IMG/VR virus record: IMGVR_UViG_3300025163_000003
Length of the DNA: 64,000 nt
Source of the DNA: a virus
Strand: one strand, 5' to 3'
Below the pieces are notes generated by a model. The model was not told the origin of the DNA and searched no databases. It saw nothing but the letters and a program-made list of their open reading frames with translations. Of the stretch, positions 10,242 through 56,753 are shown one piece after another. The position numbers and the translations under genes were made by a program. Position 1 is the first letter of the stretch. Each line of letters starts with the position of its first letter.

Positions 10242-10291
10242 AGAAAAACTTAAAAATCTTAGAGTCTTTAATCACATTCGGGTGAAGAGAC

Positions 10292-16424: not shown

Positions 16425-16426
16425 CT

Positions 16427-17704: not shown

Positions 17705-17954
17705 CTGATGGAATCTTTAATCCTTTATCTATCTTCTTAAGTTCATAAGATGCTATTTCAGTGACATATCCACCTTGATGCTTCATTATCCAGACTTCAA
17801 CTGGAAATTCTTGTCCTAGTTCATACTTGAAGTCAACAGTGAAGTTCTTGTGAGATTCATAACAACGTAGTGCTTCTTCTTTAGTCTTGTATATTTCTCC
17901 ACATCCCTTACATCTCCAACCTTCCACTCTTTCTATTTTGTCTCTTTCTTCCAT
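17655..17954 (-). CDS. small Zn-ribbon protein
   Basis: CKGCGEIYK...C pattern; 99 aa. Confidence 0.35.
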   Translation of the reverse strand: MEERDKIERVEGWRCKGCGEIYKTKEEALRCYESHKNFTVDFKYELGQEFPVEVWIMKHQGGYVTEIASYELKKIDKGLKIPSGEIHERIETRNRTKRS

Positions 17955-18280
17955 TCAAACAGACCTCCTTTTCTATATGTCTTGATTACTTCTATCTGAA
18001 AAGATTCAAGACTTATTTCACCTTTGTCCACACTAAATGTTACTCTGTTTGTCTTTCCTTCAACTATTGTTCCACAGAATGGACAGAAAAGAGTTATGTC
18101 TGAACCCATGTCATATATTCTAGCATGTTTCAATTCCATGAAAGCTTTACAGTTGGGACAACAAGGAAGAACAGGCTGTCCCAACACTGCTTTCAATATT
18201 GACTCTTTGTCTGAAGGAAACAATTCTTTGGGAATGTCAATTATTCCTACAAACTTGAAGTTGAAGAATTCAGAGGACAT
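17933..18280 (-). CDS. small Zn-ribbon protein
   Basis: CCPNCKAF...CPFCG four-Cys pattern; 115 aa. Confidence 0.4.
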   Translation of the reverse strand: MSSEFFNFKFVGIIDIPKELFPSDKESILKAVLGQPVLPCCPNCKAFMELKHARIYDMGSDITLFCPFCGTIVEGKTNRVTFSVDKGEISLESFQIEVIKTYRKGGLFEWKKETK

Positions 18281-19310
18281 TTTCCAACTCCTTCACAGCT
18301 TTATCCCATGTCCAACGTTTAGCATTTTCAATTGCTTTTCTCTTTGTCTTTTTGTATGCTTGTTCTACTTCCATCAAGAATCTCATCTTTCTATACAAGT
18401 CTGGTACAGATATCAGACCAATTCTTCCAACATTTGTTTCCAGGAATTCATTGACTTTGACATACAATGCTCCATTGCCAAGTACTTCTCTACTTGCTCC
18501 ATGTTCAGAAGCAATTACTGGTACACCACATGCTTGAGCTTCCAATGCTGGTAGACCAAATGATTCTGTGCCAGGAGAAATGTACACATCCAAAGTTCTC
18601 AAGAAGTCTCTCACTCCTTCTCTAGATAGTGGAATACCATGTAACTTTTGTTCAATGAACACTGGAGAAATCTTAAGTCTTCTTGACAGTTCCAGTAGGT
18701 CATAATGTCCTTCTGCTGATGCAGCTATTGCTAGTATTCCTTTTCCTAGTCTCTTGTAAGCATAAAATACTCTAGGCAATTGCTTTCTAATGTCATTTAG
18801 ACCAATATATCCAAATCTGAATTCTCTCCACATTTCTTGTGTAGGAGTAAAGAAAGAAGTGTCAACTCCATGTGGCACTACTTCTGCTTTAATCCCTGCC
18901 TTCCTCAGAATTCTAGCAGAATACTTGGAAGGTGTAATCACTTTGTCAAATTTCTTTATCAGTTCTTGATAGTGAAGTGGAACATCTTCACCTTCATATG
19001 GCAAATACAAAATCTTCTCCATCCTGAAGTTCTTTATCTTGTCTCCTATTTTCTCTAGGAAGTAACAAGAATGGAACATAATTAATCTGTCAGCATCAGC
19101 TAATTTCTTGGCATAGTAATCCAATTGATAATTCTTCTTGAGTGGATAAACAGAGACATGTTCATTTAAAGTGATAGGCAGTCCTTCATAACCAAGTGAG
19201 AGACAGAAGAATTTGTGTTGCATTCTCATTGTCATTTCATAAGTCACAGTACCAAAAGAAGTACCCAGTAAAGGATAATCTGACAACCAGATAATCTTCA
19301 ACTCTTCCAC
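18270..19310 (-). CDS. GT-B fold glycosyltransferase family 1
   Basis: Signature SFGLPALEAQACGVPVIASEHG. Confidence 0.8.
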   Translation of the reverse strand: MEELKIIWLSDYPLLGTSFGTVTYEMTMRMQHKFFCLSLGYEGLPITLNEHVSVYPLKKNYQLDYYAKKLADADRLIMFHSCYFLEKIGDKIKNFRMEKILYLPYEGEDVPLHYQELIKKFDKVITPSKYSARILRKAGIKAEVVPHGVDTSFFTPTQEMWREFRFGYIGLNDIRKQLPRVFYAYKRLGKGILAIAASAEGHYDLLELSRRLKISPVFIEQKLHGIPLSREGVRDFLRTLDVYISPGTESFGLPALEAQACGVPVIASEHGASREVLGNGALYVKVNEFLETNVGRIGLISVPDLYRKMRFLMEVEQAYKKTKRKAIENAKRWTWDKAVKELENVL

Positions 19311-19753
19311 CTCTTGATTATCTTACAAAGTTTTCCTGTCTTCAAGTTGAGAGTTCCTGGAAGTATAAACTTAGCCATTTCATCCTTCACTATTTTCACT
19401 TTATATGGCAATGTGAACTTCTTAAGTTCTTCAATAGAACCCAGGAAGAGTTCAAGGAACAAGACATAGTCTTTACCGTCAAACACTAAAGTTGATCTCA
19501 CTTTCTTCTTGTGATATTCTTCAGCAATTTGTTCTAAGATTTCCTTCTTTCCTTTCAACATCACTACATCAATTATAGCTGTTCCTGGAACAGGCTTTCC
19601 ATTGTACCATGTTGTGAAAGAATAGAGTCCTATCTCACAAGACTTGTTGTTTTGAATAGCTTCTTTCACTCTCATCTTCAACTCTTCTATACTCAGTATA
19701 ATTCTATTCTCTTTGAATCCTACTCTAGGAAATCTTTTGAGCATCTTTCTCAC
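19298..19753 (-). CDS. hypothetical protein
   Basis: 151-aa ORF translationally coupled between PolB and the GT1 gene. Confidence 0.35.
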   Translation of the reverse strand: MRKMLKRFPRVGFKENRIILSIEELKMRVKEAIQNNKSCEIGLYSFTTWYNGKPVPGTAIIDVVMLKGKKEILEQIAEEYHKKKVRSTLVFDGKDYVLFLELFLGSIEELKKFTLPYKVKIVKDEMAKFILPGTLNLKTGKLCKIIKRWKS

Positions 19754-27550: not shown

Positions 27551-27761
27551 CTCTTCCTCTATACTTCCCTCTTCCTTTATACTTTCCCTTGTATCTTCTT
27601 GTCCTACCTTTAGAATTTCTTGTCAGAGACTTACACAACCACTTTAGAGGACAATTCTTACAGTCAAAGTGTTGTCCATATTCTCCTAGACAATATTTGT
27701 AGGAGTTGCTATAAGACACATTTTCCTCCTCTACATTTTCCATAGATGCTGACATCTTCAT
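27540..27761 (-). CDS. small Cys-rich protein with Arg/Lys/Tyr-rich tail
   Basis: CLGEYGQHFDCKNCPLKWLC followed by RRYKGKYKGRGKYRGRDVY; overlaps the ribonucleotide reductase start. Confidence 0.3.
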   Translation of the reverse strand: MKMSASMENVEEENVSYSNSYKYCLGEYGQHFDCKNCPLKWLCKSLTRNSKGRTRRYKGKYKGRGKYRGRDVY

Positions 27762-29817
27762 CCTCTTCTTCTTTAGATTCTTTTTTCACAGTAGTGAGAA
27801 CTTGAACACTTCTACAACGATCTCTAAATACCGTGATTCCTTTACACCCTAAACGGTAAGCCAACCAGTACACTTTCTCTACATCATGAGGTGTAGCTTC
27901 ATAAGGCAAATTGACAGTCTTAGAGACTGCATTGTCAGTGTATTTCTGAAAGGCCGCTTGCATTCTAACGTGCCATTCAGGAGACACATCATGAGCAGTC
28001 ATAAATAGACGTCTGATATGTTTGGGAATTTCTTCAACATCTTGAATACTTGTCTTGTTTGCTATCTTGTGTATTAGTTCAGGAGAATAGAATCCTTCTT
28101 TCACTGCTATCTCTTCAAACAATGGATTTATCTCTATCAGAGTATGTCCTAAAGATTTCTCTAGATTCCTCATGAGAACAATAGCAAAGAGAGGTTCAAT
28201 ACCACTTGAACAATTAGCTATAATTGAGATACTACCAGTAGGAGCTATAGCAGTTACACATGAGTTTCTGAGATATTTGTACCCTTTCTTCTTCCAGATA
28301 GACCTCTCAAACAATGGAAAGTTACCTTTCTCTTTCCCTAGTCTAACTGATTCTTTTCTTGCTTCTTCAGTGATAAACTTCATTATCTTCTCTGCCAAGT
28401 CAAGTGCTTCTTGAGAGGCATATGGTATGCCCAATAAGATTAACATTTCAGCCCAACCCATTACGCCTAGTCCTATTCTTCTAGTTGACTTTGTAAGTTC
28501 TTCTATCTGTTTCAAGGGATAATGATTAGCATCTATGACATTATCAAGAAATCTAACAGCTAGTCTTACTGTCTTTCTAAGTTTCTTCCAGTCTATCTCA
28601 TAACCAGAATTCTTTCTCCTCAACATCTTCTTCAAGTTGATTGAACCTAGGTTACATGATTCAAAAGGATACAGTGGAAGTTCACCACATGGATTAGTTG
28701 CTTCTATTGGTCCTAAAGATTTCACACAGTTAGAATAGGACTTGTTTATTGTGTCAATGAACAATAATCCTGGATCACCTGTCTTCCATGCTTCTGTTAT
28801 TAGAAGATCCCATACTCCTACCGCTTTTATCTTTCTCACAATTTTACCTGTCCTTGGATTTATCAATGGATATTCTTCATCATTCTCTAGTGCCTTCATG
28901 AACTCATCAGTTACAGCCACTGAAATGTTAAAGTTTTCAAATTTACCTTCTCTTGACTTGCATGTGATGAATTCAATTATGTCTGGATGATGAACAGAAA
29001 GAACTCCCATGTTAGCTCCTCTACGTTTACCTCCTTGCTTTATCTCATTAGTCGCTGCATCAAATACTCTCATGAAAGAGACTGGTCCAGAAGCTACTCC
29101 TCCAGTTGTTCTAACTACATCACCAGCAGGTCTAAGTTTAGAGAAAGAAAACCCTGTTCCTCCTCCTGTCTTGTGAATAATAGCTGCCCATTTAACAGCA
29201 TTGAAGATTTCTTCTAGAGAGTCTTCAACTGGAAGAACAAAACAAGCTGACAATTGTCCTAGTGGTCCACCTGCATTCATCAGAGTAGGAGAGTTAGGTA
29301 AGAACTCAAAGTTAGTCATCATCTTGAAGAATTCTCTTTCTAGTCTCTTCACATATTTCTTGTCCTTGCCATACTTGTATTCCACTTCAGCTATTGTCCT
29401 TGCTACTCTTCTAAACAACTGTTTAGGAGTCTCTTTCACTTCACCATTTTCATCTCTCAACAAGTATCGTTGATAAAGGACAATGAAAGAATTCAGTGGT
29501 AGTTTCAAGTCATTCTCTACACCAACTTTCTTAGCAAAGTCTCTTGCTCTTGCTTTTCGTTCTCGATACAGGATAAATGCTTTGGAAGTCTTGTAGAGTT
29601 TGTTCTGCACTAATGTCTCTTCTATCATGTCTTGTATCTCTTCAACATGCAATACTTCTTTCTTGACTGCTTTTATCTTATTCATCACACCAGAGAAAAC
29701 TTTCTCAAGAGTTTGTTTCTTGTATTCTCCTGATGCAAGTAATGCTTTCTTGATAGCTTGTTTAACTTTACAAGGATTGAACTTGACAACTCTATTGTTT
29801 CTTTTTCTTACCTTCAT
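27709..29817 (-). CDS. ribonucleotide reductase large (catalytic) subunit with N-terminal ATP-cone; probably class II (B12-dependent)
   Basis: ATP-cone [17 protein letters not shown]. Active-site motifs [17 protein letters not shown] and [10 protein letters not shown]-terminal Cys pair CRGGKC. No small-subunit gene in the window, which favours class II, but the class is not provable from sequence alone. Confidence 0.85.
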
Positions 29818-34842: not shown

Positions 34843-35180
34843 CTTTTCACTTTCCCTATCAACATCTTTCTTTCATTGTCCCATTTGACATCTACATCTT
34901 GAGGAGGAATATTGTAGTACTTCAAGAAATGTGAACAATAAAAGATATTGCAGTATCTCTTGCCTGAACCAGAAGGTCTAAGTCTAAAGTCAAGTGGATT
35001 AGAAGATGGTTTGATTCCAATTAAGTTATTCTTGGGATCAAAAAGAAGTTCCACATATTTCTCTTTGAAGTGTTCCAACTGTGTCAGAGGAAGAACTATT
35101 CTTCCATTGCGTATCTTAAGTTTGTCTGGAATTATTCTGACTTTAGGTTGTATTCTTATGAAAGAGTTACTTCCTTCCAT
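34824..35180 (-). CDS. hypothetical protein
   Basis: 118-aa ORF. Confidence 0.3.
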   Translation of the reverse strand: MEGSNSFIRIQPKVRIIPDKLKIRNGRIVLPLTQLEHFKEKYVELLFDPKNNLIGIKPSSNPLDFRLRPSGSGKRYCNIFYCSHFLKYYNIPPQDVDVKWDNERKMLIGKVKRCTKPF

Positions 35181-36142
35181 CTTCTTCTCTCCTTGAATTC
35201 TCTGACTATTCTATCTATGTCATGTTCAGGAGGTCTAACACCTACTATTCTTCTAAGTTCCTGTAGGGACAGACCTCCTGCTTTCTTGTCTGTCTTGAGA
35301 CCAATGTTATAAGTTACTCTTGGATCATCTATGATCTCTATTGCTTCTTTGTCCCAGTAGAATCTGACAATAGGTGCACCTATCTTTGTTATTGGATAAC
35401 TTCTCTTTTCAGCATATCCTAGACGCTTTACAAAACAACCAGTTGTTAACCAGTGTTGTTCATGGCAAGTCAAGTAGAAAGAGTTTCCTACTCTTCTGAC
35501 AGCATAATAAGTCTTGTGATCTTTGTATATTTGATGAATGTGAGCATGTGCTATCAATGCTGTTCGTAAGTTTTCAAATATCTTCTTCAACTGTGTCTCT
35601 TTTCTGATAGTTGCTGAAGTGTAACCATGAATAGCATAGACAGGATAGAACTGCTCAAACTCTTTCTGCTTAATATGAACAACAAACAATTGTCCTCTTT
35701 CTGGCCCAGGCAAGAGAGGTTTGATTCCTAACTTAGCTGCAATTATTTCTGTCAGACAGTCTGTTCCTTTAGTTGCTTTCCAGAATCTCTCTTCATGATT
35801 TCCTTCAAGTAAGACTATAATTCTATCCTTGATAGGTTCTAATAGTCTGATGACTTCAGTCAATTGCATTGCCACTAACTGTTTCTCTGATGCACCATAA
35901 CGTGACAGAGCAGCCATTTCAACATAGTCACCCATAAGAACTACTTTGACATTTGGATGTTCCTTGATGTACTTGACATATTCTAGATATTGCTTCTCTG
36001 AGAAGTAACCAGAACCGATATGAAAGTCGCCCATGAAGACTATTTCACCATAAGTACATCCTTTCTTAGGCTTCAGTTCTATCACTGGGATTTCTGCTTC
36101 CATTTCATCAAGAGTTATACCTGGCAAGATATCTCTTATCAT
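35156..36142 (-). CDS. calcineurin-like metallophosphoesterase (Mre11/SbcD-like fold)
   Basis: Motifs FMGDFHIGSGY, LMGDYVE, LEGNHEE, IHGYTS, AHAHIH. Confidence 0.8.
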   Translation of the reverse strand: MIRDILPGITLDEMEAEIPVIELKPKKGCTYGEIVFMGDFHIGSGYFSEKQYLEYVKYIKEHPNVKVVLMGDYVEMAALSRYGASEKQLVAMQLTEVIRLLEPIKDRIIVLLEGNHEERFWKATKGTDCLTEIIAAKLGIKPLLPGPERGQLFVVHIKQKEFEQFYPVYAIHGYTSATIRKETQLKKIFENLRTALIAHAHIHQIYKDHKTYYAVRRVGNSFYLTCHEQHWLTTGCFVKRLGYAEKRSYPITKIGAPIVRFYWDKEAIEIIDDPRVTYNIGLKTDKKAGGLSLQELRRIVGVRPPEHDIDRIVREFKERRRWKEVTLS

Positions 36143-36979: not shown

Positions 36980-37204
36980 TTACCATGTTCTCCTTCTACG
37001 TTTCCATGGTTGACCAGGCAACTTCTTCTGGAGTATTCTCTTTTTATAAATGTTTCTTACACGTTGTTTGGGATTCTTCTTTTTCTTTCGGAGGAATACT
37101 TTCTTCTCACCTTTCTTGTTCTTACGTTCATGTTTGACTTGTGGTCTGTGACCAGGCATGTCTCTTACTTTACCAGCTTTAGCAAGACTACCATGTGTTG
37201 GCAT
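36980..37204 (-). CDS. rps30e: ribosomal protein eS30 (S30e) homolog
   Basis: MPTHGSLAKAGKVRDMPGHRPQV...KKRIL matches the conserved eS30 N-terminus (human FAU-derived S30 has HGSLARAGKVRGQTPKV...RRMQYNRRF). Extremely Lys/Arg-rich, 74 aa. Confidence 0.6.
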   Translation of the reverse strand: MPTHGSLAKAGKVRDMPGHRPQVKHERKNKKGEKKVFLRKKKKNPKQRVRNIYKKRILQKKLPGQPWKRRRRTW

Positions 37205-37205
37205 T

Positions 37206-37562
37206 TCACTTCCTCCTACTTGGTCTTATATCTCCATTCTCCTCTGCTTTCTTGTCTTCATACGGTGCTAATATTCTTCTGTAGAACTCCAATTTAACAC
37301 TTTCTAATACTTTCAGTGCATTTGATCTTCTTTCATAGTTGCCTCTTCCATAGACATCAACTAGTATTTTGTAGATGACATAAGTTACAACTCCTGAGTT
37401 TCTAGTACCTGAACTGGTCAAGTTTACTAGATTAAGAATAAGACCATCTAACCACTTTGCTAGATGTCTTCTTATTTCTCTTTTCACATATGGCATTGTT
37501 AATACTCTCACAAGACTTTGTCTATCAGGCCAAACTTCAATGCTTCTTCTGCTGACATCCAA
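37206..37562 (-). CDS. hypothetical basic protein
   Basis: 118 aa; no confident assignment. Confidence 0.3.
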   Translation of the reverse strand: MDVSRRSIEVWPDRQSLVRVLTMPYVKREIRRHLAKWLDGLILNLVNLTSSGTRNSGVVTYVIYKILVDVYGRGNYERRSNALKVLESVKLEFYRRILAPYEDKKAEENGDIRPSRRK

Positions 37563-38095
37563 TAGTCTTTCTTTCTTACTAATTTCTTTAAAGTTTTCAG
37601 CTTCTTTCCTGTTCTCTCTGCTAGAATTCTTAGAACCATCTCATTCAGTTTTGCTACTTCAGTTGACTGTTCCTGTAATTCTGTGCACTTTCCATATTCA
37701 AATGCTCCTACTTCATGGAGCATGAATCTAGACCACTTGTGAGCTATTCTCTCACTTCCTGCTTGTAGGATAATTGCTCCTGCTGATGCTGCTAATCCTC
37801 TCACTTCAATTGTTACTTTAGCACCTGAGAGAACAAGAGACCTGATAGAGTTGTACACTAGAAGAGCATGATAAACTTCTCCACCAACTGTGTTGAGAAT
37901 TATCTTGACATGTTTAGGTTTCTTCTCTTCCAGGATCAGACATTCTTTTGCTATTCTATTGCACAACTTCTCATCCAATTCTCCATGTATCACAATAATG
38001 TTCTTTTCAAGTAGATCTCTTTCTAATTCAACTGAAAAAACTGAAGTTGTTCTATCTTCCTCCTCCTGAAAATCCCAGTCAGTCATCCTTCTCAT
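37508..38095 (-). CDS. ClpP-family (S14) serine protease
   Basis: IILNTVGGEV, Ser in GLAASAGAIILQAG, His in MLHEVGAFEY. Confidence 0.8.
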   Translation of the reverse strand: MRRMTDWDFQEEEDRTTSVFSVELERDLLEKNIIVIHGELDEKLCNRIAKECLILEEKKPKHVKIILNTVGGEVYHALLVYNSIRSLVLSGAKVTIEVRGLAASAGAIILQAGSERIAHKWSRFMLHEVGAFEYGKCTELQEQSTEVAKLNEMVLRILAERTGKKLKTLKKLVRKKDYWMSAEEALKFGLIDKVL

Positions 38096-39946: not shown

Positions 39947-40864
39947 TTAAGGAGTTGGTTGAATCAATACAGGTACTCCATTTTCTCCTGTTGCAAGAAT
40001 TATCACTGGAACATCTAATTCTTTCAATGTCTGCAACCACAAATACAGCTCCAACAGTTCTGTTGAATTCATATCTGGATAAATGGACATTATCAGTTCC
40101 ATAGCTTCTTTAATACCCTCTGCTTCAATTATTTTTGCTTGTGCATATCCTTCTGCTTCTATTATCTTGGACTGTGCAGTGGCATTAGCTAATATCAACA
40201 TTCTTTCTTTCTCAAACTCTGCTTGTATTTTCTGTTGCTCTGCACATAACTTCTGTTCTATGGCATCTACATATGCTTGCGGTAGAGCAATATTTCTCAA
40301 GTCCACTTGCAAGTTGATCAGAGCATTTGCCAGTGAAGGTTCATTTTGTATAGCTGCAATAATTTCAGATTCTGCTTGATCAGCTATGACATCACGATAT
40401 AGTATAGTTTCTACAGCAGTGTATTGCTTAGTAATAAATCTCACTCGTTCTCTAACCAGTGATGCAATAGTCTTTTCTTTGTAGTCCAAGTGAGGGTAAT
40501 TGAGATAAAGATCTCTGATTTTCTCTATGTCCAATGACCATCTGACCATTATGTCAATTCTCATTTCCAACTGATCTTTAGAGAAACAAGCTACTGCAGG
40601 AAAGTCAGCAGTAGGATCGGAACCATCTCCCCACATTCCCAAAGTGTCTGTTGCAACATAAATTTTCACTACTGATACCCAAGGTGCTTTTGTACCCCAA
40701 GCAGGTCCTAAAATTGGACCAGAGACAGAACCTGACAATGGATTCACTAGGAGTGCAGCATAACCTGTTCCCACTGTGTAGAACATTGTTCCAAAGAAGA
40801 CTCCAAGAAATATTGCTGACAGTAGAATACCAATCAACAGAATAACTTTCTTTTCCATCCTCAA
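39947..40864 (-). CDS. SPFH/band-7 (stomatin/prohibitin/HflK-like) membrane protein
   Basis: N-terminal TM VILLIGILLSAIFLGVFFG. SPFH core with coiled-coil QKIQAEFEKERMLILANATAQSKIIEAEGYAQAKIIEAEGIKEA. Confidence 0.75.
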   Translation of the reverse strand: MRMEKKVILLIGILLSAIFLGVFFGTMFYTVGTGYAALLVNPLSGSVSGPILGPAWGTKAPWVSVVKIYVATDTLGMWGDGSDPTADFPAVACFSKDQLEMRIDIMVRWSLDIEKIRDLYLNYPHLDYKEKTIASLVRERVRFITKQYTAVETILYRDVIADQAESEIIAAIQNEPSLANALINLQVDLRNIALPQAYVDAIEQKLCAEQQKIQAEFEKERMLILANATAQSKIIEAEGYAQAKIIEAEGIKEAMELIMSIYPDMNSTELLELYLWLQTLKELDVPVIILATGENGVPVLIQPTP

Positions 40865-41484: not shown

Positions 41485-41882
41485 TGTTTCTTCACCTCAT
41501 CAAAACACAATTTCAAGAGAACTTCTGACTTTCCAATAGCTCCTTGTAATGGTATTTCTTTCTTGTATTCCAAGACAGGTTTCTCATCAGCTGGATTCAG
41601 AAACACTATCACTACTTTTCCCTTCAAACATGGTTTCTTTATCTTCAGAAGTAATTTCATTGAAAGAGAAGAAGTGTGATAATCCCAGTTGAGATAAGAG
41701 ATGTCAAGAGGAAGTTTCTTCCCATCTCCATATGCAAAAACTAGTAACTTGCATTTCTGAAGACGAGTAAAGACATGTTTTTGTAAAGACTTCAGTGATG
41801 GATTGTCAAGGTAATAAGGATCATGCAAAATAACTTCTGTCATTTCTTCACCAATAGGAGTAATAGAGTCTTTCCCACTCAT
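41475..41882 (-). CDS. hypothetical protein
   Basis: 135 aa. Confidence 0.3.
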   Translation of the reverse strand: MSGKDSITPIGEEMTEVILHDPYYLDNPSLKSLQKHVFTRLQKCKLLVFAYGDGKKLPLDISYLNWDYHTSSLSMKLLLKIKKPCLKGKVVIVFLNPADEKPVLEYKKEIPLQGAIGKSEVLLKLCFDEVKKQCQ

Positions 41883-43092
41883 TGACTACTGCATTTTTAC
41901 CACGAGTCAAGAAGTCCTTGATTTCTCTCTCTTTTAGTTCTATGTATTTGTCAAACATTTCACTACCAAGAGTCTCTTTCACAAGAGTATCAGATTTCAT
42001 TTCTGAAAGAGCTTCTAGTAATGACTTGGGAAGAGAAGGTAAGTTGTGTTCATAGGCATTACTTGAAAGTGGATCACCAGGATCAATTTTCTTTCTTACT
42101 CCCTCTAGACCAGCTTTCAACAGAACACTTAAGGCAAGATAAGGATTAGCAAGAGGATCAGATGCTCTATATTCAATTCTCATTCTCTCTTCCAAATTCT
42201 GTGAAGAATACAGAGGAACTCTTATCAGACAAGACCTATTCTTGAAACCCCAACTTATGTTGACAGGAGCTTCAGAATTCTTCTTTAGTCGTCTATAAGA
42301 ATTTACAGTTGGGCACATAATGGCTGACATTCCTCTAGCATGTTCCAATATACCACCAATGAAATATCTTCCAAATTGTGAGAGACCATTGTCATAGAAG
42401 AGATTTCCATTGTCAAACATTGAAATATGAAAGTGCATACCATTTCCTGGTAAGTGTGCCCATGGTTTTGGCATGAAGTTTACTTCTACTGTATGACTTT
42501 CTTTCAAGTATCTTCTCAAGAGAAATTTTATGAGAATAATGTTCTCAGAAGTGTTGATAGGAGAAGAATACTTAATACAGATTTCACTCTGGGAAGGACC
42601 AACTTCATGATTTCCATATTCCACATCTAATCCTGCTTTCTCTAAGACTTCCATAGCTTCCATTCTCAGACTTTCTGTTTCATCAGGAAAGATTTGACAG
42701 TATCTGTCAAGTAAATTCTCTGGCTCAAGAGGATTACCATTCTTAGTAAAGTAAAATTCTACTTCTGCTCCTACACGGATATTCTGATGAAATTCTTCTA
42801 AAGTTTTCTCTAAGACATACCTTGGATCAAGAGAGAATCTTTTGTCATCTTGATAGACTTCACAGAAGACTGTTGAGAATGGCTCACTCAAGTCACTGAA
42901 AAATATCTCTTTCTTAGTTCTTTCTATTGGCTTCAGAAGAAGATCAGAATTTTCTATTGTTGCAAAACCATCTACTGAAGAACCATCAAAACCAGTTCCC
43001 TCTTGTAGAACTACTTGATACTTGTCTTCAGGAATTGTTCTTACTCTTAATTTACCATTCAAGTCTAGGAAGAGAAGATAGACTATTTTCAT
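41848..43092 (-). CDS. glnA: glutamine synthetase family protein
   Basis: N-terminal beta-grasp signature GTGFDGSSVDGFATIENSDLLLKP. ATP-binding signature MPKPWAHLPGNGMHFHISMF. 414 aa. Confidence 0.85.
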   Translation of the reverse strand: MKIVYLLFLDLNGKLRVRTIPEDKYQVVLQEGTGFDGSSVDGFATIENSDLLLKPIERTKKEIFFSDLSEPFSTVFCEVYQDDKRFSLDPRYVLEKTLEEFHQNIRVGAEVEFYFTKNGNPLEPENLLDRYCQIFPDETESLRMEAMEVLEKAGLDVEYGNHEVGPSQSEICIKYSSPINTSENIILIKFLLRRYLKESHTVEVNFMPKPWAHLPGNGMHFHISMFDNGNLFYDNGLSQFGRYFIGGILEHARGMSAIMCPTVNSYRRLKKNSEAPVNISWGFKNRSCLIRVPLYSSQNLEERMRIEYRASDPLANPYLALSVLLKAGLEGVRKKIDPGDPLSSNAYEHNLPSLPKSLLEALSEMKSDTLVKETLGSEMFDKYIELKEREIKDFLTRGKNAVVNEWERLYYSYW

Positions 43093-43212: not shown

Positions 43213-43641
43213 TTACCCATTCAGTTCACCCTCCAATTCATCTAACAACTGAATAAAGAATTCAAGTTGTTCTCTCCATTCTCTGTTATCTAACCAAATA
43301 CAGTATCGTAAACGATCACAGTGAAGGCCATAAAGACTGAAACTTAGTTTTGGAGAAAACTTTCTGTCAAGTGGCTTCAAGATTCTATCAATAACTGTCT
43401 CAGGATCAAGAGAAGTTCTGAAGTCAATATGTGCTCTTCTACCTCCTTTCTCTGGATCTTCTCCATGACCACAGCAACTTTGAGTTGTCACTATAAATTT
43501 GTGTCTGTTTATTCTCTCAAGATAAGGAATCATTTCTTCATCTACATATCCCATTTGTATTTCTTCCTTCAGAGATTCTAATCTAAGTCTTCGTTCTTGT
43601 GGTGTCATCCTGTTTCCTTTGAACCTCTCCATCGAAAACAC
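43213..43641 (-). CDS. hypothetical protein
   Basis: 142 aa; QSCCGHGED motif; start region overlaps the topoisomerase 3' end. Confidence 0.3.
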   Translation of the reverse strand: MFSMERFKGNRMTPQERRLRLESLKEEIQMGYVDEEMIPYLERINRHKFIVTTQSCCGHGEDPEKGGRRAHIDFRTSLDPETVIDRILKPLDRKFSPKLSFSLYGLHCDRLRYCIWLDNREWREQLEFFIQLLDELEGELNG

Positions 43642-45253
43642 CTAATTCTTTCATGGCCCATTCAAACTTCTTTCTTAGACTTTTTGAATATGCTTTTTCA
43701 ACAGGATAATTGTATTTCAAACAGTACTTCAGAATTCTTCTTGGGTCAATGTATGAATTGAGAGAAGTGTTCAAGTTCCATTCAGCTGTTTCCTTTGTAA
43801 CTTCATAATCAAGTCTGTACTCAACTATCTTCTCCTTAATCTTTCTTATTCGTTCAAGTAGTCTTGCTTTCTGTTTCTCTGTCTTTGCCTTCTTTAACTT
43901 TTCTTCCAATTCCTTCAACTTTTCTTCATACTTCTGTATCCTTTCTTCTTTCTTCTTTAGTCTCTCTTGAAAGTTCTTAGGTAATTTCTTCTTGTGGTTA
44001 AGTCTTTTAGCAACATCACAATTGATAAGTTTGAAGGCTGTCTTCTTCAGATATAATGGTGAGTCTTCCTTGACTTCATAAAGGGAAGTGTACTTTTCTT
44101 CTGACATTTCCCATGTCTTACCAGCTAAGTGAGTCCTGAATATCTTTGCAGTTGCATTTGGAATTACTTCTTGTAAGAACTTGGCTATCTTCTTAGAATT
44201 CAAAGAGTCAAACACTCTCTGTCCTTTAGGAGTCTTCTTCCACAGTTTGAAGAAAACTTTGTGAATATCAGAAGGAAGCTCCAACTCTCTATGCCATGGG
44301 ACAAAATCTTTCCCTATGAAGTCAAGAATAACTTTGTTTCCTTCAAACTGAATATTTTCTTTTTTGAGTGTGGTACAACCTACGTTCCCTGTTTCACCAG
44401 CTATCTTTTCATCACCAACTCTAATTCCCATTTGCTGTATCAACCATACAGCAAGACCTAATTTCTGTCTTTCTTCATCATCTGAGAGAATAGCACTCTT
44501 GATGTGTTTGTCTAATTTCTTTTGATACTTGGGAATCTTAAGAGCTAGATCCCATTTCTTCTTTGCTCGTTCTTGTCTTATAACTGAATCCATACTGAAC
44601 CAGACATACTTCCACTTTCCACTGAGAGGATCTCGCCAACGAGCTATGTATAATTTGTCTGGCTTCCATTCTACCTTCCATCTTCCATCCGGTCTCGGTG
44701 CATCAGGAGATAAGTTGAGTATGATCTCCTCTTCCTTGATCCTTCTTTTGTAGCGTCCTCTCAGTGGATGTTTTCCTTTTGAAATATATAGTCCTGGTGG
44801 CTCAACTGTCCAATTCATAATTGGTACTCTTTGTCCATCCACAATAGCATATCCATATTTCTCCTTCAATGCTTCCCTCATCTTCTTTCTATCTTCTCTT
44901 AGTTTCTTCTTCATCTCTTTAGGTAAGTTCTTCTTCAGTTCCTTCTCTTTCTGTAATGCTTCATAGACCGATGAAAAGTCAAAGTCTTCCAACTTTACTT
45001 CTTCTTCAATGTTGAGTGCTATTCTCAAATCAGACAAGAAGTTGTTGACAAAGACTTCATCTTTCATGTAGTCAGTATCAAATTTCTTGACAAATGCAAC
45101 TACCATTTCTTCTTGTTCTGGTGTAAGTTTTATTTTCTTTCCTTTGTACTTGATAGTGTATCCTTTTGGCTCATAGGGAGGGATGTAAACTCCATTGTGT
45201 ATCAGTTGTTTCATAAGATTTCCCTCAGATACTTCCAAGCAAACCAAGTACAA
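43583..45253 (-). CDS. eukaryotic-type DNA topoisomerase IB
   Basis: HNGVYIPPYEPKGYTIKYKGKKIKLTPEQEEMVVAFVKKFDTDYMKDEVFVNNFLSDLR aligns with the human TOP1 core (HKGPVFAPPYEPL...YDGKVMKLSPKAEEVATFF...KEIFRKNFFKDWR). The active-site Tyr context TSLNSYIDPR matches TSKLNYLDPR. Confidence 0.9.
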   Translation of the reverse strand: MYLVCLEVSEGNLMKQLIHNGVYIPPYEPKGYTIKYKGKKIKLTPEQEEMVVAFVKKFDTDYMKDEVFVNNFLSDLRIALNIEEEVKLEDFDFSSVYEALQKEKELKKNLPKEMKKKLREDRKKMREALKEKYGYAIVDGQRVPIMNWTVEPPGLYISKGKHPLRGRYKRRIKEEEIILNLSPDAPRPDGRWKVEWKPDKLYIARWRDPLSGKWKYVWFSMDSVIRQERAKKKWDLALKIPKYQKKLDKHIKSAILSDDEERQKLGLAVWLIQQMGIRVGDEKIAGETGNVGCTTLKKENIQFEGNKVILDFIGKDFVPWHRELELPSDIHKVFFKLWKKTPKGQRVFDSLNSKKIAKFLQEVIPNATAKIFRTHLAGKTWEMSEEKYTSLYEVKEDSPLYLKKTAFKLINCDVAKRLNHKKKLPKNFQERLKKKEERIQKYEEKLKELEEKLKKAKTEKQKARLLERIRKIKEKIVEYRLDYEVTKETAEWNLNTSLNSYIDPRRILKYCLKYNYPVEKAYSKSLRKKFEWAMKELGVFDGEVQRKQDDTTRTKT

Positions 45254-45405: not shown

Positions 45406-45785
45406 CTTACTGCCTCATAGAGAACAGCTAGTGATTCAAATTTCTCTCTGTCTTGAGGCTTCATTACCTTTAGAACTTCATCCTTGAAGAAATGCCAGTA
45501 CTCCAAGAACTGAGGAGTGAAACAAACTTCATCTTCTTCAAGAGTAGACATTTCTACTCGTTGAAAGAACTTCAAACGAAGATTAGAAGAAAAGTCCAAG
45601 AAGACTCTAGACTTACTCAATACAATAGAAACTGTATAAGTACGTGTTTGCTTCAAGGTCATAGTGAAAAGTTCATGTTCAGACAAGTCCTGTTGTTTCT
45701 CTTTCAGATAAGTAACTGTTTCAGGAGGAATTTCAATTAAGACAGGAAGACCATAGAAGGCATGATAAACTCTCACTTCTTCCAC
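45402..45785 (-). CDS. hypothetical protein
   Basis: 127 aa. Confidence 0.3.
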   Translation of the reverse strand: MEEVRVYHAFYGLPVLIEIPPETVTYLKEKQQDLSEHELFTMTLKQTRTYTVSIVLSKSRVFLDFSSNLRLKFFQRVEMSTLEEDEVCFTPQFLEYWHFFKDEVLKVMKPQDREKFESLAVLYEAVR

Positions 45786-46165
45786 CGTTCAGCTCTTCTC
45801 CTATGAACTTCACGTTCAAGAATCTTACCAAACAAGTTCTCCTTACGGGGTATCCACTTAAGTTCTACCTCAAGATTTCTAGTCTTCATTACAATTCTAC
45901 ACCAAGAAGCAATTCGTTTAAGATCTTCATCTTTCACTTTATATCTTCCATTGAACTGATTAACTACAAGTTGAGAGTCAGAAAAGATTTGTATTCTTGA
46001 ATTGACAGGAGCATGAAGAAGACATATGAATAGAGCAAGCCATTCTGCTTGGTTGTTAGTGAGAGGTTGATCAACTTCAATGTGAGTGTCAACTATTTTC
46101 TTGTTCTTGACTTCACAGAAACCATATAGGCCAAGTGAAGAACCATCTATATGATATACTTTCAT
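45773..46165 (-). CDS. rnhA: ribonuclease H (type 1)
   Basis: Catalytic D in HIDGSS, E in NNQAEWLAL, D in IFSDSQLV, and a C-terminal WIPRKEN motif. Confidence 0.8.
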   Translation of the reverse strand: MKVYHIDGSSLGLYGFCEVKNKKIVDTHIEVDQPLTNNQAEWLALFICLLHAPVNSRIQIFSDSQLVVNQFNGRYKVKDEDLKRIASWCRIVMKTRNLEVELKWIPRKENLFGKILEREVHRRRAERWKK

Positions 46166-46354: not shown

Positions 46355-46531
46355 TTAGTCCTTCCTTGACGGATTAAGTTCTCCTTTCAACATTTCAAAG
46401 TAGGCTAGAGCAGCTTCATATATCTTTAACTCTTTCTCTATCTCCTTCTTCCGTCTCTTCAATGCTTTAATCTCTTGCTTACAGAGTGAAATTAGAAAGT
46501 CAAGTTCTTTTCTTGACAGTGTCAACTTCAT
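46355..46531 (-). CDS. unlisted 58-aa coiled-coil protein
   Basis: MKLTLSRKELDFLISLCKQEIKALKRRKKEIEKELKIYEAALAYFEMLKGELNPSRKD. Its ATG overlaps the upstream stop (ATGA) and its stop abuts the next ATG; it fills a 150-bp gap. Confidence 0.35.
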   Translation of the reverse strand: MKLTLSRKELDFLISLCKQEIKALKRRKKEIEKELKIYEAALAYFEMLKGELNPSRKD

Positions 46532-46986
46532 TGTAACTTCTTCCTCAACAGGTAAGTGTAAATAAGTTCTTTCTCTTTCTTAAATCCTAGCTTCTCATAG
46601 AACTTTAATGCTTCAGTATTGTCTTTCTTGACTTCAAGAATTATTTCTTTGCCATTGTTGAGAAGAATTAAAGACATCAAGTACTTCATCATTCTCTTGC
46701 CAAAACCTTGTCTCTGATAACTGTCTGCTACTACAAGACCAGAAACTTCCCATGTCTCATCATCTATACGCGTCAACTTGCCACAAGCAATTATTTTCTT
46801 GTCTGTCAATAGTAAGATAAGTTGTTCATCTGGAAGACATTTCTTCAAATTAGAGTGAATGGTTTTGGGATCTATTCCAGACAGTGAGAGTCTCTTTCTG
46901 GTATCCTCAGACAATGACTCTACAAACTCAAGCAGTTTACGAGAAAAGCGACTGTTATACTTACGAAACTTGAACTTCAAGTTCAT
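46528..46986 (-). CDS. GNAT-family N-acetyltransferase
   Basis: VVADSYQRQGFGKRMMKYLMS and ALKFYEKLGFK. Confidence 0.75.
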   Translation of the reverse strand: MNLKFKFRKYNSRFSRKLLEFVESLSEDTRKRLSLSGIDPKTIHSNLKKCLPDEQLILLLTDKKIIACGKLTRIDDETWEVSGLVVADSYQRQGFGKRMMKYLMSLILLNNGKEIILEVKKDNTEALKFYEKLGFKKEKELIYTYLLRKKLQ

Positions 46987-49229: not shown

Positions 49230-49706
49230 CTATTCCTCTAATATTCCCAAATCTAATTCATCCAACACTTGAAAGACACTCTTTCTCACTCTAGTCTTAA
49301 TGTTGAATTTTTTCTTGAAGTATTCTATGAAGATGATGATTCTTTCCATTGGTGTCTTTTCTTGTCCTTCTTCTTCATTGAATATGACATGTCCTCTATA
49401 GACATAGAAACCAGCATCACCAAAAATGTCTAAAGATTTCTCTGCTCTCAAAATTGTCTTGAACTGATACAAGTCAAGTGAACGTTCTTTTGGTCCTCTA
49501 TGAGCATCTACTTTCTCCAACCAAGTCTTGAAGTGTTGGAACAGTTCACCATTGTTCTCAATTGGAATTCTGTATCCTTTTATTCCTTTGTCAGTTTCAT
49601 ATGCATAAGCTCTAAACTCTATACCTTTCACTGTGAGAAGAGTCTCTTCTTCCTTGACTACTTTGTGAGAGAAGACTTTAGGGTATGCTACTTGCTTTTG
49701 TGACAA
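49230..49706 (-). CDS. hypothetical protein
   Basis: 158 aa. Confidence 0.3.
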   Translation of the reverse strand: MSQKQVAYPKVFSHKVVKEEETLLTVKGIEFRAYAYETDKGIKGYRIPIENNGELFQHFKTWLEKVDAHRGPKERSLDLYQFKTILRAEKSLDIFGDAGFYVYRGHVIFNEEEGQEKTPMERIIIFIEYFKKKFNIKTRVRKSVFQVLDELDLGILEE

Positions 49707-51342
49707 GTCCTCTCTCCTCCAATTTTCTCTTTAACTCTTCTTTCAACTTGGTAGTCATAGCTGTTACTCTGACTAGACCATCTTCCTCTTCAAGAATAAC
49801 TAAGTCTGTCAACAGACTAATTTCTTTCTCAAATCTCATCTTCAAGAAAGCAAGGTCTTCTATCTCTGCATTTTGTTCTTGATGGAAGGAATGAATAACT
49901 TCAGCAAATACATCAATAGCAGTAGGTTCAACAGTCACATAGAAAGTGAAATTGGGATTGTCTTTAGTTGCCTCTGAAAGGACTTCTGACTTGTCTATTA
50001 CAGGCAGACCAGACATGTTCAAGAACTCATTAACTTCTTTCAAGTTGTTCCATTTCTTTTCTTGTATCATCTTCAAGTACTTTTTCTTGACTAAGTCTTT
50101 AACAGAATTGATTGTGTCTTCACAGAATTTGTATAGAGCATATATTTCTCGTGTTTCTGACAGGAGAGAACTTACTTCCTCTTCATTGAAGTGAGGTGGA
50201 TCACTTCTAGCATCTTCAACTATGGCATTCAATGTCAGGAAGATACCTCTGTTCTTCCAAGCTAACATGTCATCATTAAACTGTTGAACTAAGTCTTTTA
50301 CACTTTCAAGACTTTCAAATATTGTCTTTTCTTCACCTATCCAGACAAGACGATGAGGAAGAGTGAATGGAATTGCTTCATTTATCTCTTCAAATCCAAC
50401 TTGTCTCTTTCCTGCATACCATGCTAGAGCTTTAGCTAACAGAACAGTTGCTCTTAGAAATCTTGGTTTAGAGAGTGCTACTTTGGAACAGAGGTGTTGT
50501 TTCTCGTTACATTCTGCACATGTCTTCTGAAGTTTAGCTGCTGAGACATCAAACTTAGACTTGTAATGTTTACAGAGAGAAAGACAATTGGTGAAAAGTG
50601 TCAACCAGACTACTATTTTACTTGGTACCTCAATACCCATTATTTCTTTCCGTATCTCTTCATACTCTTTCCAAGTGATTATCTGTTTAAGAGGTCTCTC
50701 TTTTCTACCACAAGTAGCAAACTTATGAACCATCTTCTCTGATGCAACAGAATCTGCTTGAAAGACTGGTACTACAACGTCAATTCTGTCCAATGTAGCT
50801 AAGTTCTTTTCTTCCACTTGACCAGCATACCATTCTGTCAATGGATTTGTTAGAAATGTGTAGGTCTTAGTTAGAACATCTAAACCAGCATAAGTTCGTT
50901 CTTCTAACAACTGATGAAGTTTAGCTCTATATTTGTTGTTCCAGAGGAAGAATTCATCTATAATAATGTGATCTCTTTCCATCAATTCTCCTCTTCTCAT
51001 CTGTACTATGTTCTTCTCTCTGAAGACAGCTGGATCTATGTAAGCTATCATTGACTCATCTACTTCTGAAGAAGTAACAATTCTGTAATCAAGACCAGTT
51101 GTTATTGACCAGACTCTGGCTAAAGCAGATTTAGCTACTGCATGTTCTCCTATCAACATTATAGTCAAGTCAACAGCTTTTGAGAGACAGAAGATCTTGA
51201 TGACTTCATCCATGCCATAAAGTGTCTTCTTGATTTCTCTTATCTGTTCTTTTAATTTCTCTCTCAACTGCATTCTTTTCCCTACTTCTTTCTTGCTAGG
51301 AGACTTTTCTAAAATTTTCGTTGACATGGTATCACTCTCCAA
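49678..51342 (-). CDS. MoxR-like AAA+ ATPase
   Basis: Walker A of MoxR type (GxxxxAK[ST]) in IMLIGEHAVAKSALAR; Walker B HIIIDEFFLWNNKYRAKLHQLLEER. Confidence 0.55.
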   Translation of the reverse strand: MESDTMSTKILEKSPSKKEVGKRMQLREKLKEQIREIKKTLYGMDEVIKIFCLSKAVDLTIMLIGEHAVAKSALARVWSITTGLDYRIVTSSEVDESMIAYIDPAVFREKNIVQMRRGELMERDHIIIDEFFLWNNKYRAKLHQLLEERTYAGLDVLTKTYTFLTNPLTEWYAGQVEEKNLATLDRIDVVVPVFQADSVASEKMVHKFATCGRKERPLKQIITWKEYEEIRKEIMGIEVPSKIVVWLTLFTNCLSLCKHYKSKFDVSAAKLQKTCAECNEKQHLCSKVALSKPRFLRATVLLAKALAWYAGKRQVGFEEINEAIPFTLPHRLVWIGEEKTIFESLESVKDLVQQFNDDMLAWKNRGIFLTLNAIVEDARSDPPHFNEEEVSSLLSETREIYALYKFCEDTINSVKDLVKKKYLKMIQEKKWNNLKEVNEFLNMSGLPVIDKSEVLSEATKDNPNFTFYVTVEPTAIDVFAEVIHSFHQEQNAEIEDLAFLKMRFEKEISLLTDLVILEEEDGLVRVTAMTTKLKEELKRKLEERGLVTKASSIP

Positions 51343-56146: not shown

Positions 56147-56387
56147 TATATTCTAAACGCATCTTCCTTATCTTCTTGACACTCTCTCTTGAACCATACA
56201 ATTCAGCTAAAGAGTTGAAAAGATTATAGAGAATTTGTTCAGACAGTGGTGGATCACAGTCTAAGTGCAACTTGTATTCTCCATTTGTCAGTTCAGCTTT
56301 GATAGTAACTTTGAACTTGTCTAATGCTTTCTCTTTCCTGTTATTAGATGAACTATTCTTATGTTTCTTGAACCGCATCTTGGACAT
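56139..56387 (-). CDS. hypothetical protein (5' extent uncertain; overlaps the eL40-like ORF)
   Basis: 82-aa ORF; its low-complexity basic N-terminus overlaps 56321..56494 in another frame. Confidence 0.25.
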   Translation of the reverse strand: MSKMRFKKHKNSSSNNRKEKALDKFKVTIKAELTNGEYKLHLDCDPPLSEQILYNLFNSLAELYGSRESVKKIRKMRLEYIA

Positions 56388-56494
56388 TTGTTTTCAGACC
56401 TTCTGAATTTCTTGTGGCATTTCCTACATAGTTTGAAATGTCGTCTACGGGAATATTGTGCTATTCTCAGTTTCACAGGGTCAATAATTGGCAT
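56321..56494 (-). CDS. rpl40e: ribosomal protein eL40 (L40e) homolog, C4 Zn ribbon
   Basis: Unlisted 57-aa ORF: MPIIDPVKLRIAQYSRRRHFKLCRKCHKKFRRSENKCPRCGSRNIRIVHLITGKRKH. Compare human eL40: [49 protein letters not shown]. ATG 2 nt after the alba stop. Confidence 0.55.
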   Translation of the reverse strand: MPIIDPVKLRIAQYSRRRHFKLCRKCHKKFRRSENKCPRCGSRNIRIVHLITGKRKH

Positions 56495-56495
56495 T

Positions 56496-56753
56496 TTACT
56501 TGCCTAATGTCAGCTCAATGAAAGAGACATTCTTCTGTCCCTGTTGTGTGTCAATTGTCTCTGTTCCTATCTTTATCTCTTTAAGTTGAATGTCAGTTGC
56601 AAATCTGTGTCTGACTATTTCAGCAACATCAATAGCTTTTGATATCAGTCTTCCTCTTGCTTTGATGACAATATCTTCTTTTCCTCTAAGTCTAGAAAGA
56701 ACAGCAACTACATATGTCATAGTTGGTTTCTTTCCAATTAGAATCTCAGCCAC
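56496..56753 (-). CDS. albA: Alba (Sso10b-type) DNA/RNA-binding chromatin protein
   Basis: ILIGKKPTMTYVVAVLSRLRGKEDIVIKARGRLISKAIDVAEIVRHRF...VSFIELTL matches the Alba fold consensus. Confidence 0.85.
   Translation of the reverse strand: MAEILIGKKPTMTYVVAVLSRLRGKEDIVIKARGRLISKAIDVAEIVRHRFATDIQLKEIKIGTETIDTQQGQKNVSFIELTLGK

Follow-up and report, generated by a model that had tools for sequence, protein, structure and literature searches.

The 64,000-nucleotide stretch of virus DNA analysed here (IMG/VR record IMGVR_UViG_3300025163_000003, hereafter the window) carries on its minus strand, at positions 43583-45214, a gene for a type IB DNA topoisomerase (TopoIB) of the long, eukaryote/archaea-type form. 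Our data are best explained, with a probability that we put at about 0.72, by a catalytically competent enzyme serving as the swivel of a large archaeal tailed virus from hydrothermal sediment of the Guaymas Basin and encoded by an old gene of that viral lineage. Within the long TopoIB family the enzyme itself is unremarkable, and the novelty lies in its viral carrier. To our knowledge, viral TopoIB is of the short poxvirus type, the long form being known only in giant viruses of eukaryotes. A tblastn search of 50,697 deposited genomes of phages and archaeal viruses gave no match to the long enzyme, the comparison with 38,880 PHROG families gave 0 matches, and the full-length viral matches in BFVD were only those of giant viruses of eukaryotes, at 27-31% identity. 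A scan of IMG/VR with the single protein returned nothing, and an alignment-based scan found related contigs. Viral TopoIB has been described in the literature as the short form (PMC8748870), and we came upon no relevant publication on a long TopoIB in viruses of archaea, the archaeal virome papers that were checked mentioning no topoisomerase.

The first-pass annotation of this stretch, made from the letters alone, had reported an open reading frame (ORF) at 43583-45253, and this frame is indeed present, with 556 amino acids when counted from a TTG start. In three independent assemblies (ENA ERZ27245482, Logan SRR5214304 and JGI 3300013103) a 543-residue version is called from an ATG at 45214, which overlaps, as ATGA, the TGA that ends the upstream gene, and is preceded by a GAGG-like motif. 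Because of these three calls, the overlap and the motif, the ATG start is preferred; the better gene model is probably 43583-45214, which gives 543 residues and a TAG stop, and the 13 N-terminal residues added by the TTG start would then be untranslated.

Three Pfam domains cover the protein. The cap and DNA-binding core subdomains (Topoisom_I_N, PF02919, E 1.1e-49) occupy residues 2-206 (44597-45211) and match profile positions 4-213 of 213, the catalytic core (Topoisom_I, PF01028, E 2.7e-42) residues 210-439 (43898-44587), and the C-terminal domain that holds the active-site tyrosine (Topo_C_assoc, PF14370, E 1.3e-15) residues 460-522 (43649-43837). A coiled-coil linker, seen in the AlphaFold model and in the linker alignment, is formed by helices 415-442 and 446-476 (43787-43972). 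The catalytic residues correspond one by one to those of human TOP1: R265 (codon 44420-44422) to R488, K302 (44309-44311) to K532, R360 (44135-44137) to R590, H407 (43994-43996) to H632, and the catalytic Tyr488 (TAC codon, 43751-43753) to Y723, all on the minus strand. The tyrosine stands in SLNSYIDPR, which fits the S-x-x-x-Y-(I/L)-D-P-R context of the TopoIB active site, and the pentad R265/K302/R360/H407/Y488 is invariant in all 57 of 57 aligned TopoIB sequences.

The resemblance to human TOP1 that had been read from the strings HNGVYIPPYEPKGY, KLTPEQEEMVVAF, DEVFVNNFLSDLR and TSLNSYIDPR, all of which are found in the protein, extends over the full length (E 3e-69, query 10-534 against chain 13-556), and the enzyme of Caldiarchaeum subterraneum (CsTOP1, PDB 6z01, an assignment borne out by PMC8748870) aligns from end to end with a still better score (E 7e-111). 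Judged from these alignments, the homology is far beyond chance. The AlphaFold model (pLDDT 91.5, pTM 0.83) has two long linker helices; in Foldseek its best E-value was obtained with CsTOP1 (4e-46), and human TOP1-DNA complexes were matched at a template-modelling (TM) score of 0.74. With the variola and vaccinia enzymes, the alignment is confined to the catalytic core (residues 227-375, E 1.6e-7) and the TM score is 0.33. The short type has about 300 residues and a small N-terminal domain, and the poxvirus enzymes are the classic virus-encoded TopoIBs; these and the bacterial short enzymes share the catalytic chemistry and the fold of the catalytic domain with the window protein but lack the cap, the linker and the C-terminal domain of the long form. 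With 543 residues, every long-form domain and a core-only alignment to variola and vaccinia, assignment to the short class was rejected, and so was assignment to the tyrosine recombinases or integrases, as XerH and the Tn1549 integrase were matched far behind TOP1 (E ~1e-2, TM 0.15-0.22). The ORF encodes a complete long-form TopoIB, having all the defining features that can be tested on sequence, as had been proposed.

Among characterized enzymes, CsTOP1 (PDB 6Z01/6Z03) is the closest in design: it has the same catalytic pentad and the same three-domain long form with no eukaryote-like N-terminal tail (PMC8748870, PMC4824112). It differs in being chromosomal, in belonging to the clade of ammonia-oxidizing archaea (AOA) and Aigarchaeota, and in its spacing of 67 residues between the catalytic His and Tyr, 14 fewer than the 81 of the window enzyme. 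Human TOP1 (PDB 1K4T, 1RRJ and others) shares the clamp fold, the five catalytic residues and the coiled-coil linker, but is only about 29% identical, and the window enzyme is without its N-terminal charged domain and has a linker 10 residues shorter. The giant viruses of eukaryotes (Dasosvirus and Marseillevirus LCMAC metagenome-assembled genomes (MAGs) in BFVD) also encode a full-length long form (TM 0.68-0.76); their carriers are Nucleocytoviricota, whereas an HK97-type tailed archaeal virus is concerned here. Two IMG/VR contigs, L094 (IMGVR_UViG_3300025715_000009, 388 kb) and L095 (IMGVR_UViG_3300028837_002886, 131 kb), encode deep-branching long TopoIBs of 30-32% identity. The topoisomerase is the sole gene that they have in common with the window, and the Dasosvirus and Marseillevirus matches in BFVD make it probable that both are eukaryotic giant viruses.

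That the element is viral and archaeal, as the first-pass annotation had it, is in agreement with its structural genes. An HK97-type major capsid gene (PF05065/PF25209; PHROG major head protein, 6e-20) lies on the same contig outside the window, about 1 kb upstream of position 1 (L005, 2531-3547), and on the plus strand of the window there are two tail-tube genes (Phage_tube_2 in Pfam, 1217-2030), a gene for a 1615-residue tail-fibre-like or virion protein with a CBM_4_9 domain and matches to tail-fibre PHROGs (5394-10241), and a gene for a 791-residue protein with a weak tape-measure match. Partial alignments of the capsid protein with deposited phage capsids reach identities of 24-37% at most, and the closest deposited relatives of the family B DNA polymerase (19725-22265, minus strand) are those of haloarchaeal tailed viruses, at about 26% identity. 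The source is thus, by these comparisons, a tailed archaeal virus remote from anything deposited. Its division into structural and enzymatic arms, its own DNA polymerase and its hydrothermal origin recall the Ekchuahviridae and Ahpuchviridae of ANME-1 archaea (PMC9894754) and the haloarchaeal viruses of HCTV/HVTV type. The low polymerase and capsid identities set it apart, and none of those genomes carries a long TopoIB; no topoisomerase is mentioned in the ANME-1 virus paper (PMC9894754).

The surroundings of the topoisomerase gene are conserved in related viral contigs, which come from hot springs and hydrothermal sediments and measure 58-156 kb, the longest contig with this very gene being 106 kb. 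The shared order comprises a MoxR-like AAA protein (49678-51327), two conserved unknowns, a GNAT acetyltransferase (46528-46986), an RNase H-like protein (45773-46165, Pfam RVT_3/RNase_H), TopoIB, a nucleoside deoxyribosyltransferase, a ClpP-like protease (37508-38095) and a metallophosphoesterase (35156-36142), all on the minus strand, the last being the most conserved gene of the lineage with up to 73% identity. The order is repeated in L008 (JGI 3300006448), L009 (a 95-kb Guaymas scaffold of Dombrowski), L096 (122 kb), L098 and L104/105, and the same block is found rearranged in L097; the RNase H-like upstream neighbour is retained in L008, L009, L091, L092, L096, L098, L099 and L104. By tblastn, 18-26 window genes are held in common and in conserved order per 21-kb locus (L008, L009, L091 and L092, the last two being IMG/VR contigs from the Yellowstone Obsidian Pool). 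The closest TopoIB homologues are metagenomic proteins of 58-54% identity, and the viral copies have a mean identity of 54% to one another. Since the same syntenic slot is occupied in at least nine related viral contigs, TopoIB is, by these comparisons, an old and positionally stable, yet dispensable, gene of the viral lineage and no recent capture. The proposal that the virus had captured the topoisomerase of its host is not in agreement with the conserved synteny and the deep divergence of the copies, and the alternative raised with it, an ancient viral lineage of the enzyme, fits. One of these loci, L098 (the contig of MEM2271911.1, P0014), has been deposited in an 'Archaeoglobaceae archaeon' MAG; its order of MoxR-like AAA, GNAT, RNase H, TopoIB and ClpP genes identifies it as a fragment of the viral lineage, its presence in that MAG is probably a binning artefact and the organism label of its TopoIB misleading.

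To place the enzyme, a neighbour-joining (NJ) tree of 201 long TopoIBs over 505 columns was built with 100 bootstraps from 120 database matches, 80 labelled GTDB species representatives, the IMG/VR copies, CsTOP1 and human TOP1. The window sequence falls in a 38-member clade (bootstrap 100) that consists of viral copies and of 15 chromosomal copies; these are from unclassified MAGs of 'Nitrososphaeria' sampled in hot springs, and their cellular context was verified on contigs of up to 500 kb. A separate clade, beside the human sequence, unites Nitrosopumilales, Nitrososphaerales, Nitrosocaldus, HR01 and CsTOP1. The phylogeny that had been suggested as a check puts the enzyme in a viral and thermophilic 'Nitrososphaeria' clade, apart from the ammonia oxidizers. 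Clade-specific hidden Markov models (HMMs) ranked the window protein in the order viral (661 bits), sister cells (633), Bathyarchaeia (551), Hadarchaeia (532), Aenigmarchaeota (497) and AOA/Aigarchaeota (493); an HMM-based call between viral and sister-cell affinity was rejected, the gap of 28 bits being equal to the outgroup background of 32 +/- 17.

A focused re-analysis of 54 sequences (L-INS-i alignment; Kimura, gamma and Dayhoff-6 distances) recovered the clade at 100% and the 15 cellular copies as monophyletic at 95-100% under all three distance schemes, and the monophyly of the 23 viral copies in just 0-1% of the bootstrap replicates. Viral and cellular copies lie at similar distances from the outgroup (1.52 and 1.50). 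The cellular copies form one tight group with a mean identity of 65%, against 54% for the viral ones, and the nearest neighbour of this group, P0045, is viral. Two linker forms occur in the clade: a long one (His-to-Tyr spacing of 80-81 residues, HK[KR]KLP) in the window, L008, L009, L097, L104 and the 15 cellular copies, and a short one (67-72 residues, HKKALP) in L091, L092, L096, L098 and L099, the spacing in the outgroup being 57-77 residues. An E-W-N-L motif before the active-site tyrosine is a feature of the clade and is present in the window protein. The basal NJ placement of the window sequence with P0011 (bootstrap 56) was rejected as a long-branch artefact, since in its linker it hardly differs from P0002 and P0003. 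The MAG enzymes of the sister group (JARVJP01 DRTY6_bin.115, JACIWG01 MAG-19 and CALHLD01 S1_Bin_236) thus share the clade, the long linker and HK[KR]KLP with the window enzyme, to which they are 47-49% identical, and differ in their cellular neighbourhoods, with no viral genes near.

A distant relative of the virus, L093 (IMGVR_UViG_3300044799_000154), has its TopoIB gene at a different genomic position (10001-11515), and this sequence nests in a 32-member Bathyarchaeia clade (bootstrap 100), which makes it a second, independent acquisition. Because of this separate acquisition, and because one closer relative lacks the gene in its slot (see below), TopoIB is a recurrent, useful but dispensable accessory of these viruses.

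Several points weigh against an old lineage gene in a tailed archaeal virus, or narrow what may be said of it. The relatives were mostly recovered with TopoIB itself as bait. A search independent of this bait, with the MoxR-like AAA protein, gave two more relatives: in L099, a 156-kb contig, TopoIB occupies the same slot, but in L102/L109 (IMGVR_UViG_3300009499_000295, 133 kb) there is no TopoIB in the 44 kb seen, which include the slot itself, flanked by RNase H and the g60 homologue, and a ribonucleotide reductase (RNR) gene adjoins ClpP instead. The lineage can thus do without TopoIB. Bootstrap values at the deep nodes of the clade are 2-42, which neither gamma distances nor Dayhoff-6 recoding improved, and any direction or number of transfers read from trees built by NJ only is tentative. 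Neither terminase nor portal was identified by Pfam and PHROG profile searches in the part of the genome examined, where a 710-residue ORF that precedes the capsid gene matched no profile in either collection. The lineage is present in IMG/VR without being characterized and is apparently an undescribed group of family level; it may, all the same, already be catalogued under another, provisional family name in large virome surveys.

The habitat of the viruses is geothermal throughout (hydrothermal sediment of Guaymas core 4571-4 and the Yellowstone Obsidian Pool), and we conclude that the host is a thermophilic archaeon of the TACK group. The first-pass annotation had taken the enzyme itself as a sign of a Nitrososphaerota host, long TopoIB being regarded as characteristic of Thaumarchaeota among archaea. 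This view is outdated: the long form is also present in Bathyarchaeia, Hadarchaeia, Aenigmatarchaeota, Brockarchaeota, Jordarchaeia, Methanomethylicia and others (database matches; PMC8748870), and because it is so widespread across Archaea its presence alone is no host clue. Long TopoIBs of 35-43% identity also occur on MAG contigs with bacterial GTDB labels (L032, L062, L075, L077, L086 and L087; Acidobacteriota, Chloroflexota/Anaerolineae and 'bacterium'), some of up to 205 kb; in NJ, those of L032 and L077 group with Bathyarchaeia sequences, which suggests mis-binning or transfer from archaea to bacteria. As to Nitrososphaerota, the nearest cellular homologues (48-49% identity) are indeed labelled 'Nitrososphaeria archaeon' in this phylum by NCBI, but the ammonia-oxidizer clade is separate and had the lowest HMM score. 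The other host signals disagree: thermophilic Nitrososphaeria are favoured by composition and by the sister clade in the TopoIB tree, whereas the glutamine-synthetase-like (GlnA-like) and Band_7 genes point to Bathyarchaeia, which NCBI taxonomy places in another phylum than Nitrososphaerota.

The best placed of the hosts considered, at a little less than an even chance, is a thermophilic Nitrososphaeria archaeon that does not oxidize ammonia, either of the sister-MAG lineage or Caldarchaeales-like, from which TopoIB would have been acquired once and long ago. It accounts for the sister clade of 15 chromosomal copies from hot-spring MAGs and for the long-linker HK[KR]KLP form that these share with the window subtype. 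Tetranucleotide frequencies, compared with TopoIB masked on loci of about 6 kb, correlate with the window at 0.88-0.96 for related viruses; the best cellular values are those of two sister-clade loci (L029, 0.68; L012, 0.61), with a median of 0.50 for loci labelled Nitrososphaer* and values of about 0 for Hadarchaeia. This comparison had been proposed with Nitrosopumilus-like genomes in mind; the signal it gives is highest for the thermophilic sister clade, Nitrosopumilales and Nitrosocaldus loci reaching moderate values of 0.52-0.55. The nearest named cellular relative of the DegT gene lies in the glycan cluster of a Nitrososphaeria MAG, although DegT was dropped as an uninformative host probe, the gene being common to related viruses. 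Caldarchaeales with CRISPR arrays occur in the same Guaymas core. A single capture from cell to virus is, on the other hand, a poor fit to viral monophyly in 0-1% of the bootstraps, the composition test is built on loci of about 6 kb only, the GlnA-like and Band_7 genes point elsewhere, and no matching spacer came to light; four genes of the lineage, used as queries against IMG/VR, recovered none of the CRISPR-assigned Guaymas fragments of uncultivated viral genomes (preprint 10.1101/2025.08.23.671958).

A host among the Bathyarchaeia, with a primarily viral TopoIB clade from which the 'Nitrososphaeria' sister group obtained its copy, is less well placed and in our view rather unlikely. It would explain why the two cellular-type genes specific to the window, which bring in a host signal from outside Nitrososphaerota, are of this type: all 13 organism-named sequences among the best 120 matches of the GlnA-like protein (41848-43092, minus strand, 414 residues) are Bathyarchaeia or Bathycorpusculaceae, and the sole organism-named match among the best 10 representatives for the Band_7/SPFH protein (39947-40858, minus strand, absent from the relatives compared) is a Bathyarchaeota. 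None of the relatives examined has the GlnA-like gene, which is therefore a later acquisition of this virus; at 41-45% identity for GlnA and 44% for Band_7, neither is a recent transfer. The Bathyarchaeia-type TopoIB of L093, the abundance of Bathyarchaeia in such sediments (PMC10541130), and the position of the 15 cellular copies as one tight branch among many deep viral ones, with a viral nearest neighbour, are in agreement with this host. Against it, the tetranucleotide similarity is low (40 loci, median 0.18, maximum 0.48), and the described tailed viruses of Bathyarchaeia are much smaller, with no topoisomerase mentioned in the paper on them.

The same tree shape bears on the wider history of the enzyme. 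With the cellular copies confined to one compact branch, many viral branches running deep around it and a viral sequence as its closest neighbour, long TopoIB might have had a lasting reservoir and vehicle in the large tailed viruses that infect thermophilic TACK archaea, and the chromosomal copy of one lineage of thermophilic Nitrososphaeria might be derived from such a virus; we offer this only tentatively, as a doubtful but consequential idea. If it were true, repeated exchange between viruses and cells, of which the separate Bathyarchaeia-type copy of L093 is an instance, would help to explain the patchy spread of long TopoIB over Archaea and a few Bacteria, and a viral player would enter the debate on the origin of eukaryotic TOP1. 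Long TopoIB is treated as a cellular marker, as a 'hallmark' of Thaumarchaeota and as evidence for its presence in the archaeal-eukaryal ancestor. Our data call for caution in its use as a host or lineage marker and make archaeal tailed viruses a plausible vehicle for its patchy distribution. A viral origin has been proposed for eukaryotic Topo IIA (PMC9752973), which is a parallel case. The clade also offers thermostable TOP1 variants with a natural range of linker lengths of 67-81 residues for mechanistic work.

Clamping of the DNA, a 3'-phosphotyrosyl intermediate and relaxation independent of ATP and Mg2+ are the general mechanism of the TopoIB family. By analogy, the window enzyme would clamp around duplex DNA and Tyr488 would attack one strand to form the 3'-phosphotyrosyl intermediate, R265, K302, R360 and H407 stabilizing the transition state; the cut strand would swivel under the friction of cap and linker, and the nick would be resealed without ATP or Mg2+, so that positive and negative supercoils could both be relaxed. 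Archaeal long TopoIBs are active in vitro (PMC4824112, PMC8748870). Enzymatic activity and a part in viral replication are what we infer from sequence, and the enzyme would most likely be the replication and transcription swivel of a viral genome of at least 106 kb. This role is suggested by the overlapping, co-directional arrangement with RNase H and by the location in the same arm as the family B DNA polymerase, RadA-like, XPF, RNR and Alba genes. It is improbable that the enzyme is instead a site-specific strand transferase for the resolution of concatemers or telomeres or for recombination, as discussed for poxvirus TopoIB. The catalytic fold is that of tyrosine recombinases, weak Foldseek matches to XerH and integrases were obtained, and no integrase or resolvase was noticed among the window annotations; but the protein has the full cap, linker and clamp of the relaxing enzymes and is 47-48% identical to chromosomal archaeal TOP1s, the gene is dispensable in one relative, and there is no evidence for hairpin ends.

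Less credible still is a virus of Nitrosopumilus-like ammonia oxidizers which recently captured the topoisomerase of its host, so that the enzyme would mark the host: the Nitrososphaeria labels of the nearest named cellular homologues, a window GC content of 37%, near that of Nitrosopumilales loci, and the moderate tetranucleotide correlations with Nitrosopumilales and Nitrosocaldus would fit, but the AOA and Caldiarchaeum TopoIBs are a separate clade with the lowest of the six clade-HMM scores, the identity to Nitrosopumilales is just 40%, the gene is syntenic and deeply diverged across the viral lineage, every sample is geothermal and many archaeal lineages have a long TopoIB. For practical purposes a Nitrosopumilus-like host is excluded. 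It is equally hard to believe that the window is a cellular genomic island or an archaeal plasmid, despite its many cellular-type genes (GlnA-like, Band_7, RNR, ClpP, glycosyltransferases), in view of the capsid, tail-tube and fibre genes, of more than 100 kb of small co-directional genes mostly without Pfam matches, of the five relatives in IMG/VR, and of annotations in which no rRNA, housekeeping or other cellular marker genes occur, tRNA genes being absent from the window and from 13 viral loci.

The layout of the window is that of a large virus with two arms. Near 12 kb the plus-strand structural genes give way to a long enzymatic arm on the minus strand, and GC skew and AT skew, both positive at 1-12 kb and both negative at 12-64 kb, flip exactly at this strand switch, with strong purine loading of the coding strand across the window. 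Neither notable tandem repeats nor Borg-like features were found in the window. In order of increasing position, the enzymatic arm holds the sugar-modification genes, the family B DNA polymerase, a short XPF, a RadA-like ATPase and ParB; a class II RNR, MazG, an HD protein and a nucleotidyltransferase; the metallophosphoesterase, ClpP, the nucleoside deoxyribosyltransferase and Band_7; the glutamine-synthetase-like gene, a TYW3-like gene, TopoIB, RNase H and GNAT; and the MoxR-like AAA protein, an RNA ligase and Alba. Of the neighbours invoked in support of an archaeal virus, several stood up to the profile searches: the XPF is short (241 residues, nuclease domain only, under the NCBIfam cutoffs), the RNR (27709-29817, minus strand) is a class II, B12-dependent NrdJ with an ATP-cone (748 bits against a cutoff of 400), and Alba is found at 56496-56753 on the minus strand (Pfam 1e-17).

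The ribosomal proteins reported with them fared less well. A 74-residue ORF at 36980-37204 on the minus strand has the HGSLAKAGKVR signature of eS30 and is a candidate viral eS30, but its Ribosomal_S30 match (E 0.01, 16.4 bits) is under the cutoff of 27. The putative eL40, a 57-residue zinc-ribbon ORF at 56321-56494 on the minus strand (MPIIDPVKLRIAQ...CRKC...CPRCGS) that abuts the Alba gene, yields generic zinc-ribbon matches in Pfam and no L40e. In the related viral loci L009 (12967-13260), L104 (5445-5756) and L105 (5484-5795) a gene for an eS26 homologue is clearly recognizable (Pfam S26e, E 3e-21), in the last two directly downstream of TopoIB; the window has no counterpart (tblastn E > 2), and we found no literature report of eS26 in archaeal viruses. 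The present data flag a group of large geothermal archaeal viruses with eS26, an eS30-like ORF, Alba, class II RNR and a glutamine-synthetase-like gene.

The glutamine-synthetase-like protein is about 45 residues shorter than its homologues and scores 361 bits against the NCBIfam GlnA cutoff of 429. The gene directly downstream of TopoIB, which overlaps its 3' end (43213-43608, minus strand), encodes a protein like the N domain of TYW3 (Pfam TYW3, E 9e-7) and covers the N-terminal 45 residues of TYW3 only; it is absent from this slot in the relatives, and a 46%-identical homologue lies elsewhere in L109 (15108-15503), which is without TopoIB. At the beginning of the enzymatic arm, a sugar-modification cluster (13144-19310, minus strand) comprises an NAD-dependent epimerase, a DegT aminotransferase, a GT2, a GNAT and two GT4 glycosyltransferases. 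Related viruses have the DegT gene too, at about 50% identity, which suggests a virus-directed glycosylation of the virion or of the host surface.

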